A stretch of 14,950 nt of DNA from a virus (Duplodnaviria > Heunggongvirae > Uroviricota > Caudoviricetes): the IMG/VR virus record IMGVR_UViG_2630968558_000006. One strand, written 5' to 3'. Positions 4,459-13,246 of this stretch are shown piece after piece. Under the pieces are notes generated by a model, which ran no database searches, had not been told where the DNA came from, and was given only the letters and a program-made list of their open reading frames with translations. The translations under genes and the position numbers were made by a program. The stretch's first letter is position 1; each line of letters starts with the position of its first letter.

Positions 4459-4866
4459 ATGGATACAAAAAATTTAACTATCGGCGAACGCATTAGGTAT
4501 CGTCGGAAAAACCTCAAACACACCCAAAGGTCTCTTGCTAAAGCCCTGAAAATCTCCCATGTGTCTGTATCACAATGGGAACGGGATGATAGTGAACCTA
4601 CAGGGAAGAACCTTTTTGCCCTCAGCAAAGTATTGCAATGCTCACCAACATGGATTCTATTTGGCGATGAAGACAAGCAACCAACACCACCTGTTGAGAA
4701 GCCAGTTGCCTTATCTCCCAAAGAACTAGAGCTCCTTGAGCTGTTTAATGCACTGCCAGAATCAGAACAGGATACCCAGCTCGCCGAAATGCGAGCTCGA
4801 GTAAAAAACTTCAATAAACTCTTTGAAGAATTACTAAAAGCCCGTCAGCGGACAAATAAAAGATAA
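4459..4866 (+). CDS. dicA: DicA, C2/cI-like HTH repressor (135 aa)
   Basis: Translation MDTKNLTIGERIRYRRKNLKHTQRSLAKALKISHVSVSQWERDDSEPTGKNL... matches my recall of K-12 DicA almost throughout. Confidence 0.9.
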   Translation: MDTKNLTIGERIRYRRKNLKHTQRSLAKALKISHVSVSQWERDDSEPTGKNLFALSKVLQCSPTWILFGDEDKQPTPPVEKPVALSPKELELLELFNALPESEQDTQLAEMRARVKNFNKLFEELLKARQRTNKR

Positions 4867-5032: not shown

Positions 5033-5185
5033 ATGGATACTATCGATCTTGGCAACAGCGAATCTCTGGTATGTGGCGTGTTCCCCAACCAGGACGGTAC
5101 GTTCACCGCGATGACATATACCAAAAGCAAAACGTTTAAAACCGAATCTGGCGCGCGTTGCTGGTTAGCCAGAAACACTGACTGA
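5033..5185 (+). CDS. ydfA: YdfA-like small protein (50 aa), first gene of the dicBF operon
   Basis: ATG at 5033 with GAGG Shine-Dalgarno 5 nt upstream; MDTIDLGN... resembles my recollection of K-12 YdfA. The track ORF start at 4955 lies inside the promoter region and is rejected. Confidence 0.7.
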   Translation: MDTIDLGNSESLVCGVFPNQDGTFTAMTYTKSKTFKTESGARCWLARNTD

Positions 5186-5196
5186 TGAGGCTGACG

Positions 5197-5466
5197 ATGG
5201 AATTTAAAGATTTACCGTCTGATGTACAGAAAACAGCAGCTCATACATTGCATTCTGTGCTGCGAGAAATCGGGAAAGATATTGCAAGCGAGCCAGCAAA
5301 AGATCTGGCCCGGAAAATCAAGACCGCTTTCGTTGAGCTTTATAATGTTGGCACTGACTCTGAAACTGTCGAGACCAAGAGCGTAAGTTCACCAATATTC
5401 TCACTTGAGCCAGGCGTATTATCAGGTGAAATATCACCGAGATTTCCAGCGAACTGCTTCCGGTAA
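5197..5466 (+). CDS. YdfB-like protein (89 aa; the N-terminus MEFKDLPSDVQK resembles K-12 YdfB, but this gene is longer)
   Basis: ATG at 5197 with GAGG 6 nt upstream; an alternative ATG at 5185 overlaps the ydfA stop (TGATG). Confidence 0.6.
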   Translation: MEFKDLPSDVQKTAAHTLHSVLREIGKDIASEPAKDLARKIKTAFVELYNVGTDSETVETKSVSSPIFSLEPGVLSGEISPRFPANCFR

Positions 5467-5529
5467 TACGAGAAGCAATTTGCCGTCGCGGTTTGGATGG
5501 AAGTTACGATCATGACGTCCTGCAAGTTC

Positions 5530-5730
5530 TCAGGACAATGGTGACTTCACTGGGGATTTGATCCCTGCGTCCTCTAACCTTTTGATATAGCGGTCCTCCA
5601 AGAAGCGGTAAATTTTGTCGAAATCATCTTTCCCCTCTGGTTTATTCAGAGGATTACAGGACCCGTAAGTAGCGGCATACATTTCAACCGTTTTATCAAA
5701 AATATAAGAGACAAATTCTTCTTTAGTCAT
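5530..5730 (-). CDS. Hypothetical small protein (66 aa) oriented against the dicBF operon
   Basis: ATG at 5730 with GAAGGAAA Shine-Dalgarno about 8 nt upstream; protein-like charged sequence; locally AT-rich; no competing plus-strand ORF longer than about 15 codons in 5467-5740. Confidence 0.45.
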   Translation of the reverse strand: MTKEEFVSYIFDKTVEMYAATYGSCNPLNKPEGKDDFDKIYRFLEDRYIKRLEDAGIKSPVKSPLS

Positions 5731-6005
5731 ATAGATTTCCTTCTTGGTTATTCGGGATAAGAAGGATACCACCTCGCCTGACGTGGTTAAAAGCAGGCAC
5801 ACAACACGAAAGCGCACGGCGAAGTTCGTCTCACTGTACGGTGTCGTTAAATTTAATTCGACCGTGCGCTTCCGGTTGTGGCAACCCGCGAAATGGCGCG
5901 GCGGTAAGTATGGCGGGGTTATTCCTTCCCCGTTGAGGACACCGAGTTGTCAGGTTGACCATACGCTTAAGTGACAACCCCGCTGCAACGCCCTCTGTTA
6001 TCAAT

Positions 6006-6063
6006 TTTCTGGTGACGTTTGGCGGTATCAGTTTTACTCCGTGACTGCTCTGCCGCCGTTTTT
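6006..6063 (+). ncRNA. dicF: DicF small regulatory RNA (about 53 nt plus terminator U-run)
   Basis: TTTCTGGTGACGTTTGGCGGTATCAGTTTTACTCCGTGACTGCTCTGCCGCCG followed by TTTTT matches my recall of K-12 DicF (possibly one 3'-terminal difference); located between the ydfB-like gene and dicB as in K-12. Confidence 0.85.
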
Positions 6064-6232: not shown

Positions 6233-6421
6233 ATGAAAACGTTATTACCAAACGTTAATACGTCTGAAGGTTGTTTTGAAATTGGTGTCACTATCAGTAA
6301 CCCTGTATTTACTGAAGATGCCATTAACAAGAGAAAACAAGAACGGGAGCTATTAAATAAAATATGCATTGTTTCAATGCTGGCTCGTTTACGTCTGATG
6401 CCAAAAGGATGTGCACAATGA
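6233..6421 (+). CDS. dicB: DicB cell-division inhibitor (62 aa)
   Basis: Translation MKTLLPNVNTSEGCFEIGVTISNPVFTEDAINKRKQERELLNKICIVSMLARLRLMPKGCAQ matches my recall of K-12 DicB; GAGGA Shine-Dalgarno 7 nt upstream. The track ORF from 6128 is a 5' over-extension. Confidence 0.9.
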   Translation: MKTLLPNVNTSEGCFEIGVTISNPVFTEDAINKRKQERELLNKICIVSMLARLRLMPKGCAQ

Positions 6422-6702: not shown

Positions 6703-9174
6703 ATGAGTAAAGTCTTTATTTGCGCCGCTATTCCTGACGAACTGGCAACAAGGGAAGAAGGCGCTGTGGCTGTAGCCACAGCCATTGAAGCTGGCGACGA
6801 ACGCCGTGCTCGAGCAAAATTTCACTGGCAGTTCCTGGAACATTATCCGGCTGCTCAGGACTGCGCTTATAAATTTATTGTCTGCGAGGATAAACCTGGC
6901 ATACCCCGCCCTGCCCTCGATTCATGGGATGCTGAATATATGCAGGAAAACCGCTGGGATGAGGAGTCTGCTTCTTTTGTCCCGGTTGAGACTGAATCCG
7001 ATCCGATGAACGTCACTTTTGACAAGCTGGCCCCTGAAGTACAGAACGCTGTCATGGTTAAGTTCGACACATGTGAAAACATCACCGTTGATATGGTTAT
7101 TAGCGCACAGGAATTGTTGCAGGAAGACATGGCAACATTCGACGGACATATCGTTGAAGCGTTGATGAAAATGCCAGAAGTTAACGCCATGTATCCGGAG
7201 CTTAAGTTGCACGCCATTGGGTGGGTTAAGCATAAATGTATTCCTGGTGCTAAATGGCCCGAAATTCAGGCAGAGATGCGCATCTGGAAAAAACGTCGCG
7301 AAGGTGAACGCAAGGAAACCGGAAAATACACGTCTGTTGTTGATCTCGCCCGCGCCAGAGCCAATCAACAGTACACTGAAAATTCAACAGGAAAAATCAG
7401 CCCGGTCATTGCTGCCATTCATCGCGAATACAAGCAGACATGGAAAACACTGGATGACGAACTGGCCTACGCTCTCTGGCCTGGTGATGTGGATGCCGGA
7501 AACATTGACGGCAGCATCCATCGCTGGGCAAAAAAAGAAGTTATCGACAACGACCGCGAAGACTGGAAGCGTATCTCGGCATCAATGCGCAAACAGCCTG
7601 ATGCCCTTCGCTACGACCGCCAAACTATTTTTGGCCTTGTCCGTGAGCGTCCGATCGACATTCACAAAGATCCCGTAGCACTGAACAAATATATCTGCGA
7701 ATACCTGACGACAAAGGGCGTGTTTGAGAATGAAGAAACAGACCTAGGCACTGTTGATGTTCTCCAGTCATCAGAAACACAAACTGATGCAGTGGAAACT
7801 GAGGTATCTGATATCCCAAAAAATGAAACCGCGCCGGAAGCTGAACCATCTGTAGAGCGTGAGGGGCCGTTCTATTTCCTCTTCGCAGATAAGGACGGAG
7901 AAAAATACGGTCGCGCAAACAAACTTTCTGGTCTGGATAAGGCACTGGCTGCTGGCGCCACTGAAATCACAAAAGAAGAATATTTTGCCCGAAAAAATGG
8001 CACATACACGGGCTTACCGCAAAATGTAGATACCGCTGAAGATTCAGAACAACCAGAGCCGATAAAAGTTACCGCTGACGAAGTAAACAAAATTATGCAG
8101 GCAGCCAATATCAGCCAGCCTGACGCCGATAAGTTGCTTGCTGCATCACGTGGTGAATTTGTTGAAGGGATTAGTGACCCGAATGATCCGAAATGGGTTA
8201 AGGGGATCCAGACCCGCGATTCTGTGAACCAGAACCAGCATGAATCGGAACGGAACTACCAAAAAGCGGAACAAAACAGCCCAAATGCGTTACAAAACGA
8301 GCCAGAAACGAAACAGCCTGAACCAGTGGCGCAACAGGAAGTGGAAAAAGTCTGCACCGCCTGCGGTCAGACCGGCGGCGGCAACTGCCCTGATTGTGGC
8401 GCGGTGATGGGCGACGCAACATACCAAGAAACATTCGATGAAGAGTATCAGGTTGAAGTTCAGGAAGATGATCCGGAGGAAATGGAAGGCGCTGAACATC
8501 CACACAAGGAGAACACTGGCGGCAATCAGCATCACAATAGCGATAATGAAACTGGCGAGACGGCAGATCACTCAATTAAGGTGAACGGTCATCACGAAAT
8601 CACATCCACCAGCAGGACGTGTGACCATCTAATGATCGACCTTGAAACCATGGGAAAAAATCCTGATGCCCCGATCATCTCAATAGGTGCAATATTTTTC
8701 GATCCGCAAACCGGAGATATGGGACCCGAATTTAGTAAGACTATCGATCTGGAAACTGCTGGCGGAGTCATTGATCGGGACACCATTAAATGGTGGCTTA
8801 AGCAATCACGCGAAGCGCAATCTGCCATTATGACCGATGAAATCCCGTTAGATGATGCACTGTTACAATTGCGGGAATTTATCGACGAAAACTCCGGTGA
8901 ATTTTTTGTTCAGGTCTGGGGAAATGGAGCCAACTTCGACAACACGATTTTGCGCCGTTCATACGAACGGCAGGGGATCCCCTGCCCGTGGCGTTACTAC
9001 AACGATCGCGATGTACGCACAATCGTTGAGCTGGGGAAAGCCATAGACTTCGATGCCAGAACGGCTATTCCATTCGAAGGTGAGCGCCATAATGCACTTG
9101 ATGACGCCCGTTACCAGGCAAAATACGTTTCAGTTATCTGGCAAAAACTGATCCCGAGTCAGGCTGATTCTTAA
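6703..9174 (+). CDS. ydfE: Prophage exonuclease (823 aa): N-terminal YdfE-like region, acidic low-complexity linker with a CxxC...CxxC zinc ribbon, C-terminal DnaQ-like DEDDh 3'-5' exonuclease domain
   Basis: N-terminus MSKVFICAAIPDELATREEG... matches my recall of the K-12 ydfE remnant. Zinc ribbon CTACGQTGGGNCPDCG (about 8350-8400). Exonuclease motifs MIDLETMG (Exo I), GNGANFDNTIL (Exo II) and HNALDDARY (Exo III) in about 8620-9174. GAGG Shine-Dalgarno 10 nt before the ATG. Confidence 0.85.
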   Translation: MSKVFICAAIPDELATREEGAVAVATAIEAGDERRARAKFHWQFLEHYPAAQDCAYKFIVCEDKPGIPRPALDSWDAEYMQENRWDEESASFVPVETESDPMNVTFDKLAPEVQNAVMVKFDTCENITVDMVISAQELLQEDMATFDGHIVEALMKMPEVNAMYPELKLHAIGWVKHKCIPGAKWPEIQAEMRIWKKRREGERKETGKYTSVVDLARARANQQYTENSTGKISPVIAAIHREYKQTWKTLDDELAYALWPGDVDAGNIDGSIHRWAKKEVIDNDREDWKRISASMRKQPDALRYDRQTIFGLVRERPIDIHKDPVALNKYICEYLTTKGVFENEETDLGTVDVLQSSETQTDAVETEVSDIPKNETAPEAEPSVEREGPFYFLFADKDGEKYGRANKLSGLDKALAAGATEITKEEYFARKNGTYTGLPQNVDTAEDSEQPEPIKVTADEVNKIMQAANISQPDADKLLAASRGEFVEGISDPNDPKWVKGIQTRDSVNQNQHESERNYQKAEQNSPNALQNEPETKQPEPVAQQEVEKVCTACGQTGGGNCPDCGAVMGDATYQETFDEEYQVEVQEDDPEEMEGAEHPHKENTGGNQHHNSDNETGETADHSIKVNGHHEITSTSRTCDHLMIDLETMGKNPDAPIISIGAIFFDPQTGDMGPEFSKTIDLETAGGVIDRDTIKWWLKQSREAQSAIMTDEIPLDDALLQLREFIDENSGEFFVQVWGNGANFDNTILRRSYERQGIPCPWRYYNDRDVRTIVELGKAIDFDARTAIPFEGERHNALDDARYQAKYVSVIWQKLIPSQADS

Positions 9175-9246: not shown

Positions 9247-9498
9247 ATGAGCGAAGTAATCATGATTGTCTCTCCCGGCAAATGGGTATCCGAAGAGCAG
9301 TTAATTGCGCTGAAAGGAATAAAAAAAGGTACGTTAAAAAAGGCCCGGGAAAAATCGTTTATGGAAGGAAGGGAATATAAGCATGTCGCTCATGACGGTA
9401 TGCCATGGGATAACAGTCCATGCTTTTACAACCTGGAAGAAATTGATCGCTGGATTGAGCGCCAGGCATCAGCAAGACCAAGACGTCATCTTACTTGA
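9247..9498 (+). CDS. Excisionase-like protein (83 aa)
   Basis: Immediately upstream of int; contains a GREY motif in a context resembling lambda Xis (KDGREYLFHESA versus MEGREYKHVAHDG); small and basic. Confidence 0.6.
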   Translation: MSEVIMIVSPGKWVSEEQLIALKGIKKGTLKKAREKSFMEGREYKHVAHDGMPWDNSPCFYNLEEIDRWIERQASARPRRHLT

Positions 9499-9517
9499 CT
9501 AAAAGCCACACTAACTA

Positions 9518-10813
9518 ATGAGAGAAGTTGAAATGAAATATCCGACAGGCGTGGAAAACCATGGAGGGAAATTACGTATCTGGTTTGTTTATAAAGGCGT
9601 AAGAGTCAGGGAAAACCTGGGGGTTCCTGACACAGCAAAAAACAGGCGCGTTGCAGGTGAGCTACGCGCCTCTGTTTGTTACGCAATAAAAACTGGTGTT
9701 TTCGACTATGCAAAACAGTTTCCCTCCTCACGCAATCTGGAAAAATTTGGTGAGACCCGACAAGATTTAACCATAAAAGAACTGGCTGAAAAATTTCTGG
9801 CACTGAAAGAAACTGAAGTCGCAAAAACATCACTCAACACATACCGTGCCGTCATCAAAAATATCCTGAGCATAATCGGTGAAAAAAATCTTGCCTCATC
9901 GATTAATAAAGAAAAATTACTGGAGGTTCGTAAAGAGCTACTGACTGGATACCAGATCCCCAAAAGTAACTATATTGTTACACAACCAGGGAGATCGGCT
10001 GTAACTGTAAATAATTACATGACAAATCTTAACGCCGTGTTCCAGTTTGGTGTTGATAACGGTTACCTGGCAGATAACCCGTTTAAGGGGATCTCGCCAT
10101 TAAAGGAATCAAGAACCATTCCGGATCCTCTTTCGCGGGAGGAATTCATCCGTCTTATCGATGCGTGCAGAAATCAGCAAGCCAAAAATTTATGGTGTGT
10201 TTCTGTTTATACTGGCGTTCGCCCTGGTGAGCTGTGTGCACTTGGATGGGAGGACATAGATCTGAAAAATGGAACAATGATGATCAGGAGAAATTTAGCA
10301 AAAGACCGTTTCACGGTACCAAAAACACAGGCGGGAACCAATCGGGTCATTCATCTTATTAAGCCAGCAATCGACGCTCTCCGGAGTCAGATGACATTAA
10401 CGAGACTGAGCAAAGAGCATATCATTGATGTTCACCTCAGAGAGTATGGCAGAACAGAAAAACATAAATGCACCTTTGTTTTTCAACCTGAAGTGTCAGC
10501 GAGAGTAAAAAATTATGGTGACCATTTTACCGTTGACTCAATAAGGCAGATGTGGGACGCAGCGATAAAACGTGCCGGACTCCGCCATCGAAAATCATAT
10601 CAGTCGAGACATACTTATGCCTGCTGGTCGCTGACAGCTGGTGCTAACCCGGCATTTATAGCAAACCAGATGGGCCATGCAGATGCGCAAATGGTATTTC
10701 AGGTATACGGAAAATGGATGTCTGAAAACAATAATGCACAGGTAGCTTTGTTAAATACACAGTTAAGCGAGTTTGCCCCAACCATGCCCCATAACGAAGC
10801 AATGAAAAATTAA
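9518..10813 (+). CDS. Lambda-family tyrosine integrase (431 aa; alternative ATG at 9533)
   Basis: Size and position next to the host junction; C-terminal tyrosine-recombinase-like segment (...HRKSYQSRHTYACWSL...HADAQMVFQVYGKW); corresponds positionally to intQ of K-12 Qin, which is defective there. Confidence 0.85.
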   Translation: MREVEMKYPTGVENHGGKLRIWFVYKGVRVRENLGVPDTAKNRRVAGELRASVCYAIKTGVFDYAKQFPSSRNLEKFGETRQDLTIKELAEKFLALKETEVAKTSLNTYRAVIKNILSIIGEKNLASSINKEKLLEVRKELLTGYQIPKSNYIVTQPGRSAVTVNNYMTNLNAVFQFGVDNGYLADNPFKGISPLKESRTIPDPLSREEFIRLIDACRNQQAKNLWCVSVYTGVRPGELCALGWEDIDLKNGTMMIRRNLAKDRFTVPKTQAGTNRVIHLIKPAIDALRSQMTLTRLSKEHIIDVHLREYGRTEKHKCTFVFQPEVSARVKNYGDHFTVDSIRQMWDAAIKRAGLRHRKSYQSRHTYACWSLTAGANPAFIANQMGHADAQMVFQVYGKWMSENNNAQVALLNTQLSEFAPTMPHNEAMKN

Positions 10814-11000
10814 TTTAATATTTATCAAATAGTTAACACGCATGGCTCTTGAAATCCATAAATTCAAGTGCCGTACCTAACCATCCTGATACCGCTGCCT
10901 TCACTAAATCCTTAGTGCTTCTTTCATGTTTTTCTATTGTCATAATTATTATCTCTAAATAAGAGGTAAGATGCGTACTGCTTATCCGCTGTTATTGATA

Positions 11001-12020
11001 TTATTCAGAAAAAGTGAGTAAAACTTTGCAGCAATGCTTTTGATCATTTTCAAATAATGAAATAGCATCAGCGACATGTTGATAATCAAAGGTATGAATA
11101 ATTAATTTATCAGGGTTAATTAAACCTTTGCTTAGCCAGTCGATAACCACCGGAAATTTATTGGCATTTAACCGAGAAGAAAAAATAGAGAGTTCCTTGC
11201 CGGTAATTCCCTGTTGAATAACTTCAGACGGCTCACTGGAGAATCCCATTAACACAATTCGTGCCGCAGGAGATGCCAGCATAACCGCTTCTTTCAGAAT
11301 TGATGGATGACAAGCGGCATCAATAATTAATGTTGGTTTAATACCCTTTTCAGCGAATATTTCGCCAAGCGGTGTCTGGCTGTTATTAATCGCCCAATCT
11401 GCTCCGCTCTCTTTCGCTTTGTCCAGTCGTTCATCAATGCGATCGGCAACAATCACATTTTTAACGTTATAGACCCCCTTTAATACCTGAACAATAGTCA
11501 GACCAATTGGACCTGCGCCATAAACCAGCACGGTGTCATCTTCAGTCGGTTGACCGTGTCCGGTAACGTTCGCCGCAATGGTAAAGGGTTCGATCATTAC
11601 CGCGAATTTATCAGCCACTGCATCGGGAATTTTCCACGCGTTTTTTGCCGGAACTACCGCATATTCGCTAAAACCGCCGTCGGTGTGAACACCTAATACT
11701 GCTAGCGTTGTGCAGACGTTCGGCTTACCAATTGAACACGGATAACAATGTCCGCAACTGACTACCGGATCTACCGCAACACGTTCGCCAACTCTGGTGT
11801 TCACTACGCCTTCACCTACGGCATCAATCACGCCAAAAAACTCGTGCCCAATGACGCGCGGATATTTCGCAAATGGATTATGACCGCGATAAATATGACT
11901 ATCCGATCCACAAATCCCGGCGAGTTTCACTTTTACTCGCACTTCACCCGCTGATGGGGTAGGTATTTCCCGTTCGATAATCGCCAGTTGATTCGGTTTT
12001 TCAATTAAGATGCTTTTCAT
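11001..12020 (-). CDS. rspB: RspB, zinc-type alcohol dehydrogenase-like starvation-sensing protein (339 aa)
   Basis: MKSILIEKPNQLAI...GICGSDSHIYRGH...GHEFFG...VLVYGAGPIGL matches my recall of K-12 RspB; GGAG Shine-Dalgarno overlapping the rspA stop. The track start at 12044 lies inside rspA and is rejected. Confidence 0.9.
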   Translation of the reverse strand: MKSILIEKPNQLAIIEREIPTPSAGEVRVKVKLAGICGSDSHIYRGHNPFAKYPRVIGHEFFGVIDAVGEGVVNTRVGERVAVDPVVSCGHCYPCSIGKPNVCTTLAVLGVHTDGGFSEYAVVPAKNAWKIPDAVADKFAVMIEPFTIAANVTGHGQPTEDDTVLVYGAGPIGLTIVQVLKGVYNVKNVIVADRIDERLDKAKESGADWAINNSQTPLGEIFAEKGIKPTLIIDAACHPSILKEAVMLASPAARIVLMGFSSEPSEVIQQGITGKELSIFSSRLNANKFPVVIDWLSKGLINPDKLIIHTFDYQHVADAISLFENDQKHCCKVLLTFSE

Positions 12021-12031
12021 TATTTTACTCC

Positions 12032-13246
12032 TTACCAGTTCCATAACGTGCCATCTTCCAGACGTGCGACTGGCAGATAAGCAGGTTCGTAGGGATATTT
12101 CGCCGCCAGCTTTTCATCGAACTCGATGCCAATACCTGGCTTGTCACCCGGATGCATATAGCCGTTATCGAAGCTCCAGTTGTGCGGGAACACTTCGAGC
12201 ATTTGTTCTGAGTAGCCCATGTATTCTTGTACGCCAAAATTCGGCACCCACAGGTCAAAGTGCAAAGCCGCAGCCATGCAGACTGGTGACAAATCGGAAG
12301 GGCCGTGTGAGCATGTGCGCACCTGATAAAGCGAAGCAAAATCCGCAATCCGACGCATACCGGTAATGCCGCCTGCATGGGTCAGCGTGGTACGGATATA
12401 GTCGATAAGTTGCTCTTCAATGAGCTGTTTACAGTCCCAAATGCTATTGAAGACTTCACCCACCGCAATTGGCGTGACGGTATGTTGGCGAATCAGACGG
12501 AAACACTCCTGGTTTTCTGCGGGGGTCGGATCTTCCATCCAGAACATGCGAAAATCTTCAATGCTTTTACCAAAGCGCGCCGCTTCAATAGGCGTTAAGC
12601 GATGATGCATGTCATGCAGCAAATGTTCATCAAAACCAAACTTGTTACGTACCGCGTCGAACAGTTTTGGCATGAAGTCGAGATATTTTTCCGTTGACCA
12701 CAACTGCTCTTCTGGCCACTGCCCTTTGGTCGCAGGTTCATAGGCCTGCCCTTTTCCTTTGGACATACCGTAAGTCGTTTTCATGCCAGGAATACCGCAC
12801 TGCACGCGGATGGCCTTGAATCCCAGTTCCTGATGACGGGCATAATCATCCAGTGCCTCATCAATACTGTGACCGGTGGTATGGCAATAGACCATCACCC
12901 CTTCGCGAGACGCGCCGCCGAGTAACTGGTAAAGCGGCATGTTGGCAGCTTTGGCTTTAATGTCCCATAGCGCCATATCAACGGCTGAAATGGCCGACAT
13001 AGTCACCGGGCCGCGACGCCAGTAAGCACCTTTATAGAAAAACTGCCAGATATCTTCGATACGGTGGGCATCGCGGCCTATAAGTTGCGGACACAGGTGA
13101 TCCTGCAAATAGGACGCAACGGAAAGCTCGCGTCCGTTGAGAGTGGCATCACCAAGACCGGTAATACCGTCCTCGGTGGTGATTTTTAAGGTGACGAAAT
13201 TACGCCCCGGACAGGTAACAAAAACTTCAGCCCCTACAATCTTCAT
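12032..13246 (-). CDS. rspA: RspA, enolase-superfamily mannonate dehydratase-like starvation-sensing protein (404 aa)
   Basis: Translation matches my recall of K-12 RspA nearly throughout (start [39 protein letters not shown]...); AAGGAA Shine-Dalgarno. Confidence 0.95.

Follow-up and report, generated by a model that had tools for sequence, protein, structure and literature searches.

Between the ybl81-type gene and DicF, the DNA studied here carries a small open reading frame (ORF) that points against the operon in which it lies. This raises two questions, that is, whether the ORF, which we call gene A, is a gene at all, and what a gene of this orientation could do at such a place. The window, by which we mean the whole stretch of 14,950 nucleotides that was analyzed, has the gene order ydfA (DUF1391)-ybl81-[A, reverse]-dicF/dicB-ydfD, and dicBp is the promoter. 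The first-pass annotation had described a 66-aa ORF with a strong ribosome-binding site on the minus strand, and both the ORF and its Shine-Dalgarno sequence are present (Table 1). The same annotation had called the region locally AT-rich. This description holds only weakly, since the GC content is 0.39-0.445 over 5500-5800 as compared with 0.33-0.555 in the neighboring 200-nt windows.

Table 1. Positions of gene A, its signals, and the adjacent features in the window
Feature	Position	Strand	Description
Gene A ORF	5530..5730	-	66 aa; ATG at 5730-5728; stop codon ends at 5530
Shine-Dalgarno sequence of gene A	5736..5743	-	GAAGGAAA; 5 nt 5' of the ATG; read from the sequence
Candidate promoter of gene A	5763..5790	-	Predicted; extended -10 and weak -35, 16-nt spacer
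Inverted repeat	5738..5767		TCCTTCTT ... AAGAAGGA; from the RNA fold of 5800-5400 (-)
Truncated ybl81-type gene	5197..5466	+	N-domain (MEFKDLPSDVQ...) and linker; ends early at 5466
Domain B	5436..5561	+	C-terminal ~41 codons of ybl81; cut off from its start codon here
DicF precursor/leader	5800..6006	+	Conserved; right-hand boundary of the variable cassette
DicF sRNA	6007..6058	+	Rfam RF00039, 72.5 bits, E=1.1e-14; downstream neighbor opposed by gene A
dicB	6234-6421		Downstream of DicF

Coding evidence and distribution of gene A

The length of the ORF by itself is no proof that A is a gene. The window contains 39 ATG-started ORFs of at least 66 aa, and 11.1 +/- 3.3 such ORFs were found in shuffled sequence. 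The evidence that A is coding comes from the comparative data and not from its length. When A was compared with homologues of 57% and 73% identity, dN/dS was 0.28 and 0.11, respectively; dS was saturated in both comparisons, and the changes were concentrated at third codon positions. Counted in frame, the differences at the first, second and third positions were 12, 14 and 28 in one comparison and 21, 13 and 33 in the other. These values indicate that A is a genuine protein-coding gene under purifying selection, and the earlier claim of a reverse-oriented gene inside the DicA-repressed dicBF operon proved to be right.

The translation signals of A are conserved as well. All homologues of A share the start MT(K/N)EE, and a purine-rich Shine-Dalgarno sequence is retained in all of the diverged ones; the start, the length and the Shine-Dalgarno sequence are kept down to 47-57% identity. 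A longer form of 95 aa, which would start at a GTG and extend to 5817, was rejected as unused, because all homologues start at MT(K/N)EE. The product is a hydrophilic protein of 66 aa with a mass of 7.7 kDa and a pI of 5.3, in which no transmembrane segment was predicted.

Gene A has been annotated before. Its amino acid sequence is identical to RefSeq WP_000159335.1, a "hypothetical protein" of BL21(DE3), and it is also annotated as a CDS in phage mEp460_ev081, a functional temperate phage that carries dicB, dicF, dicAC and rem (PMC10448788). Residues 1-66 align with profile positions 1-66 of PHROG 34441, a family with no assigned function (E=1.5e-50), and the exact sequence belongs to a cluster of 135 members, every one of which is named "hypothetical protein". 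A profile search of 1.84 billion cluster representatives gave about 10 true relatives, which belong to Escherichia, Shigella and Cedecea or lie on a small number of metagenomic contigs. The most distant of them, P0022, has 73 aa and is related to A with an hhalign probability of 99.2%. This is a very narrow family, yet a real one. The segment bearing A was present in 398 of the 5426 complete E. coli genomes (~7%), and both REL606 and BL21(DE3) carry the gene.

Three further loci (L065, L066 and L067) have the upstream region of A and only its first 15-16 codons (MTKEEFVSYIFDKTV), after which unrelated sequence follows. The three loci suggest a breakpoint that was used repeatedly, some 46 nt inside the gene.

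The AlphaFold2 model of A is a two-helix hairpin (pLDDT 82.8) with helices at residues 3-22 and 31-54, and such a predicted fold is uninformative as to function. There was nothing significant for A in Pfam (best E=0.04), NCBIfam or PADLOC; the PDB profile search gave E values of 0.46 or higher, and all Foldseek matches in PDB and BFVD had E>1. When A, the 121-aa protein described below and P0022 were compared with Pfam, NCBIfam and PADLOC, which include toxin-antitoxin and defense models, none of the three gave a match above threshold. No literature was found on WP_000159335, ybl80, ybl81 or ybl82, and the databases and literature searched held nothing on the function of A. Thus A is an already annotated but uncharacterized gene, for the biochemical role of which the homology, structure and defense-model searches give no clue. 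As a separate candidate, we considered sRNA-17 of an mEp460-like prophage (PMC7719688), and the sequence given for it in the supplement of that paper is absent from the window.

The opposite strand and the cassette around gene A

The first-pass annotation had found the plus strand opposite A empty, and the gene upstream of it had been called ydfB-like. In the window itself, the longest plus-strand ORFs within 5467-5743 are indeed only 22 and 36 aa. This emptiness is, however, private to the window, because a 1-bp deletion near 5436 cuts the upstream gene. Alignment with BL21 showed that one G is missing between 5435 and 5436, and tblastn placed residues 81-121 of the 121-aa protein of BL21 at 5436-5558, in another frame. 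Instead of a ydfB-like gene, the upstream gene is a frameshifted ybl81, whose full product of 121 aa is named Ybl81 in UniProt and matches PHROG 33007. The gene is intact, as an ORF of 121-137 aa ending at 5561, in BL21 and in all of the ~60 other loci. Among the 398 complete E. coli genomes that carry the segment, the deletion at 5436 was found in none, and ybl81 was intact in all 398. The deletion could be either a true pseudogenization or a sequencing error.

The C-terminal part of Ybl81, which we call domain B (~40-45 aa), is encoded by the strand opposite to A. The two coding regions converge, and their 3' ends overlap by 32 nt (5530-5561). Domain B is not confined to Ybl81. At locus L002, it is fused to another N-terminal part in a 129-aa protein encoded downstream of an S24 repressor gene (36% identity), and at the Cedecea locus L003 it is a stand-alone ORF that had not been called as a gene, with its own AGGAGA Shine-Dalgarno sequence (59-62% identity). 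Over the 29 codons of B that do not overlap A, the comparison of E. coli with Cedecea gave pS values of 0.84-0.95 and pN values of 0.18-0.20, and the differences by codon position were approximately 9, 3 and 18. This pattern indicates that domain B is itself coding. In the AlphaFold2 model of Ybl81 (pLDDT 59), a disordered linker (residues 54-84) lies between two separate helical hairpins, the second of which is B. An alignment of the B domain, used as the query of a word-indexed search, found no match, probably owing to a limit of the index, since the full 121-aa query worked.

Wherever A is full-length, B is present on the other strand, so that A and B are inherited together in three contexts, namely the ybl81 fusion, the L002 fusion and the stand-alone ORF of L003. 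Part of this co-inheritance is unavoidable linkage, because the two genes physically overlap. In addition, A is not strictly dependent on B, because in the window B is frameshifted and A is intact. The most distant homologue of A (locus L154) has as its partner an early gene of 63 aa, which overlaps it by 35 nt and is not detectably B.

In five contexts, including the window and BL21, L002, L003 and L154, gene A lies antisense to early genes that are under the control of a repressor. It lies downstream of the S24 repressor gene at L002 and between a cro-like and a cII-like gene in Cedecea (L003), and it was found alongside at least five types of repressor (immunity) gene. Within the ~8-10 kb fetched around each locus, dicF was not detected near A at L002, L003, L010 or L064, and neither dicB nor ydfA was detected at L002, L003, L010, L060, L062 or L064.

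The N-domain of Ybl81 (~50 aa) defines a wider family (L068-L151). Its genes are the first or second of the early-left region, and they have at least seven unrelated C-terminal parts. Behind each C-terminal type, at one locus or more, there is a different small convergent ORF in reverse orientation, which overlaps or abuts the gene. These reverse ORFs encode 63-81 aa; one belongs to PHROG 21180, and one is uncalled in Enterobacter kobei. Judging from this arrangement, the interval behind the ybl81-family genes looks like a hotspot of diversity.

When the window was aligned with the Qin prophage of K-12, the two were nearly identical from dicA through ydfA. Homology broke off at about 5185, returned at about 5800, and from about 5845 on, with DicF and dicB included, it was near-perfect. 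K-12 has ydfB-ydfC at the equivalent place on the plus strand, in agreement with the first-pass annotation as regards ydfC. The K-12 YdfB and YdfC proteins found no counterpart in the window by tblastn, where their best E values were 1.4 and 1.1 and neither best match lay within 5185-5800. Because K-12 homology breaks at ~5185 and resumes at ~5800, the interval is a mosaic alternative cassette that replaces ydfB-ydfC, and not an insertion into an operon of the K-12 type. The earlier suggestion of a horizontally inserted moron thus survives in part. That is, the DNA is mosaic and the orientation and position of A fit a moron, but the alignment with K-12 speaks for replacement. As for other features expected of a moron, the gene is present in one and absent from another of related phages (the cassette is swapped relative to K-12 Qin), its compositional contrast is only mild, and no intrinsic terminator was found at its 3' end.

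A degraded copy of the upstream sequence of A was observed in K-12 Qin (L005, ~2640-2700), although K-12 has no gene A. There, GAAAGGATAT..TGAAAAG.CAG can be aligned to AAGAAGGATAC..TTAAAAGCAG of the window (5760-5800). This remnant may be a scar left when a ydfB-ydfC cassette replaced a cassette of the A type.

At the right-hand end of the cassette, a TTG-started ORF occupies 5744-5974 on the plus strand, and the first-pass annotation had allowed that K-12 ydfC might correspond to it. YdfC does not align there. The ORF matches PHROG 8854 (E=2e-27), and it sits on the near-invariant DicF leader. Relatives have 1-nt indels within it, as well as indels of 3 and 7 nt in it or just upstream, and in view of the frame-breaking 1-nt indels it is most likely not a gene. 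PHROG 8854 probably collects ORFs that were miscalled on a conserved RNA precursor.

Several observations were made in other parts of the window. The DicA repressor (4459-4866) is K-12-like and only 58% identical to the BL21 repressor (L001, 2058-2465), and the ydfA-ybl81-A-dicF-dicB block is >99% identical to BL21; this difference implies that a recombination junction separates the early-left genes from the immunity region. On the minus strand, 514-838 contains a hok/sok-type type I toxin-antitoxin locus, with an Rfam sok match at 664-838 (115 bits) and a Hok-like ORF of 70 aa at 514-726. Between it and a DUF977 gene, a homologue of QueH (epoxyqueuosine reductase; Pfam E=2.7e-65) is encoded at 1282-2061 on the minus strand. 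On the plus strand, 6703-9174 encodes an 823-aa protein at the position of "exonuclease VIII", which is full-length here and truncated in BL21(DE3); a C-terminal Rv2179c-like 3'-5' exoribonuclease domain is all that Pfam recognizes in it. Excisionase and integrase genes followed by the host genes rspB/rspA (9247-13246) mark the attachment side known from K-12 Qin. The window as a whole is ~95.7% identical to its best E. coli matches, and because the identity is only of this order, the host may be a divergent lineage of Escherichia.

Expression signals and the possible role of gene A

The candidate promoter of A consists of the extended -10 sequence TGgTATCCT (5771-5763) and the -35 sequence TTAACC (5790-5785), which agree with the consensus at 4/6 and 4/6 positions, plus the TG. 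A generic promoter scan with a threshold of 9/12 matches did not report it. The block GGTGGTATCCTT is the best-conserved non-coding block 5' of A among the E. coli-type loci and L002, and the sequences on both sides of it diverge. Its counterpart in Cedecea (L003) is GGTGATACCCTT, and a perfect TATAAT precedes the distant homologue at L154 by about 60 nt. In view of this conservation, the TGnTATCCT element may serve as an extended -10 promoter of A.

The same motif could instead be the arm of a hairpin in the 5' untranslated region that pairs with the Shine-Dalgarno sequence. In the predicted RNA fold, the inverted repeat pairs the Shine-Dalgarno sequence of A (AAGAAGGA) with TCCTTCTT of the -10 region, and a shorter pairing, TCCTTT/AAAGGA, was seen by eye in the upstream sequence of L002. 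The repeat could sequester the ribosome-binding site, or it could belong to the folding of the sense transcript; it lies within the mRNA of A only depending on where transcription of A starts. No intrinsic terminator was found 3' of A by the terminator scan or in the RNA fold of 5800-5400. Farther to the left, on the minus strand at 4840-4853, a hairpin with a T run behind it resembles a terminator; it lies at the 3' end of dicA. This hairpin would halt leftward transcripts, e.g. those from the promoter of A, ahead of dicA.

The regulation of the opposing operon has been described. DicA and DicC play the parts of CI and Cro, DicA represses dicBp, and cleavage by RNase III and RNase E releases DicF from a polycistronic RNA (PMC10448788). 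Since the operon is under the control of DicA at dicBp and DicF arises from the polycistronic RNA, transcription of the operon must run head-on through A. Genes that are antisense to lytic genes and have their own promoter are typical morons or accessory loci (PMC7067206).

On these grounds, we hold with moderate confidence that A, in the slot of sieB, is an accessory gene (moron) of a Qin/Rac-type lambdoid prophage, that it is expressed in lysogeny and shut down by convergent early transcription, and that B is a possible partner. In the lysogen, DicA would keep dicBp off, and A would be expressed by itself, with transcription starting at its extended -10 promoter and translation giving the soluble two-helix protein. 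When the operon is derepressed, early transcription would pass head-on through A, and the collision of polymerases would shut A down; pairing of the sense and antisense RNAs over the overlap of at least 32 nt would help to silence it. The early transcript would also encode the co-inherited B domain of Ybl81. We speculate that A serves the lysogen, most likely in the exclusion or abortion of superinfecting phage or in some other modulation of the host, and that B might be a lytic-phase partner or antagonist of A, by analogy with Esc and SieB. A stronger form of this idea is that A and B make up a new strand-switched cassette for exclusion and self-immunity, in which A is made only in the lysogen and keeps out incoming phage or protects lysogeny in another way, B is made only by the derepressed operon and neutralizes A, and head-on transcription silences A, and that the ybl81-family interval, with its seven or more C-terminal types, is a hotspot of such pairs in Qin/Rac-type prophages. 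We regard this stronger form as unlikely. Neither the conserved partner domain on the opposite strand nor the match to the sieB slot had figured in the first-pass annotation.

The position of A, between dicBp and dicF, ~280 nt upstream of DicF and converging on the operon, can also be read in terms of RNA. That is, the unit might mainly serve to brake or insulate the dicBF operon from the antisense strand. Transcription from the promoter of A would collide with leaky transcription from dicBp, and the mRNA of A would pair with the polycistronic RNA and alter its processing by RNase III and RNase E, so that the toxic DicF and DicB are kept off in the lysogen and the peptide is secondary. The maturation of DicF from a polycistronic RNA by these two enzymes (PMC10448788) agrees with such a role, and as no terminator follows A, its transcript could reach back towards dicBp, the hairpin at 4853-4840 being the only one on the minus strand. 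However, the amino acid sequence of A is under clear purifying selection, which means that the protein matters, and the module occurs at loci where dicF or dicB/ydfA was not detected, which argues against a device specific for DicF. As a device for DicF alone, the antisense-coupled regulator that the first-pass annotation had suggested as a possibility is weakened by these loci too. As a main function, we consider the brake rather unlikely; it and our preferred explanation, a lysogeny-expressed accessory gene, are not mutually exclusive.

A further thought is that A and B, on their two strands, could form an addiction-type pair of toxin and antidote, one being harmful and the other neutralizing it. 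Their co-inheritance in three contexts would suit such a pair, both are predicted to be small helical hairpins that could pack together, and prophage early regions often hold toxin-antitoxin modules, as the hok/sok locus of this window exemplifies. We nevertheless judge it quite improbable: neither A nor B matches a toxin-antitoxin or defense model, convergent and oppositely regulated genes are not the usual layout of type II systems, A is hydrophilic and in this respect unlike type I toxins, A is intact in the window despite the frameshift in B, and the most distant homologue of A has a different partner. Finally, A might be a chance or over-annotated ORF antisense to a plus-strand gene or leader, e.g. 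a diverged ydfC. It is true that an ORF of this length is found about 11 times in shuffled sequence of the length of the window, and that 32 nt of A overlap a real plus-strand gene. Against this stand the dN/dS values of 0.11-0.28 with their in-frame codon-position bias, the conservation of the start, length and Shine-Dalgarno sequence in homologues of 47-57% identity, and the lack of matches to K-12 YdfB and YdfC in the window; moreover, beyond the 32-nt overlap, no relative has a rival ORF on the plus strand. The comparative data effectively refute the chance-ORF reading, which we find hardly credible.

Gene A adjoins the toxic dicF and dicB, and lambda and Rac have sieB in the corresponding slot. 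If A is indeed a lysogeny-phase exclusion or regulatory factor with a partner on the opposite strand, the locus would be a compact new example of how a prophage distinguishes self from non-self, and the interval after the first early-left genes would be a hotspot worth mining. If A has no phenotype, it would be one more small hypothetical gene of a prophage.

Comparison with known systems

Of the known systems, the Qin prophage of K-12 shares the flanks of the locus. Its ydfB-ydfC pair stands where the cassette stands here, with ydfA on one side and the DicF leader on the other, and the flanking sequences are nearly identical. In contrast to the cassette described here, both K-12 genes run in the plus direction, they show no relation to A, B or the N-domain of Ybl81, and no reverse gene is annotated in the slot.

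Other phages offer antisense units with which A can be compared. The OOP RNA of lambda is thought to regulate cII and hence the switch between lysis and lysogeny (PMC7067206); it is, however, a non-coding RNA of 77 nt, whereas A is a conserved protein-coding gene. In the Pseudomonas phage Fc02, olg1 encodes a 7.9-kDa protein that is expressed in the lysogen from the strand opposite to gene 10 of the early lytic operon, and the products of olg1 and gene 10 both give superinfection exclusion (PMC9936078). The likeness to A lies in a small protein and an antiparallel overlap with an early gene. Fc02 differs in that it is a Mu-like phage of Pseudomonas and olg1 is co-transcribed with the repressor gene, and homology to A is not to be expected.

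The system that A resembles most in its arrangement is sieB (superinfection exclusion B) of lambda, Rac and P22. SieB is a larger membrane protein, of 162-184 aa as compared with the 66 aa of A, which is predicted to be soluble. It aborts the lytic growth of superinfecting phage, with Esc protecting the resident phage, and A is not known to have an exclusion phenotype. The two proteins showed no similarity, with an hhalign probability of 0.4% against Rac SieB and E>1 by BLASTP against lambda SieB; a resemblance over 10 residues of A (YIKRLEDAGI) to VMKKLERKGI and YISELIELGV of SieB was not significant and not colinear, and it was discarded. The expression of sieB is under the control of sas, an antisense RNA, and SieB is countered by the phage-made Esc (PMC12197685). 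Esc is made from sieB itself as a shorter product; B, in contrast, is the tail of a convergent gene on the opposite strand.

The likeness is one of position. In lambda, N (-, 35037-35438) and sieB (+, 34482-35036) exactly abut. In the Rac prophage of K-12, the order is racR (-), ydaG (-), ydaF [DUF1391] (-), sieB (+), kilS and kilR (-), and sieB shares the last 4 nt at its 3' end with ydaF. Thus, like A, sieB lies in reverse orientation in the early-left operon by the immunity region and converges on the first early gene or genes. In Rac it also lies upstream of a division inhibitor, which is kilR there and dicF/dicB in the case of A. That is, A occupies the slot that sieB holds in lambda and Rac, in the same orientation.
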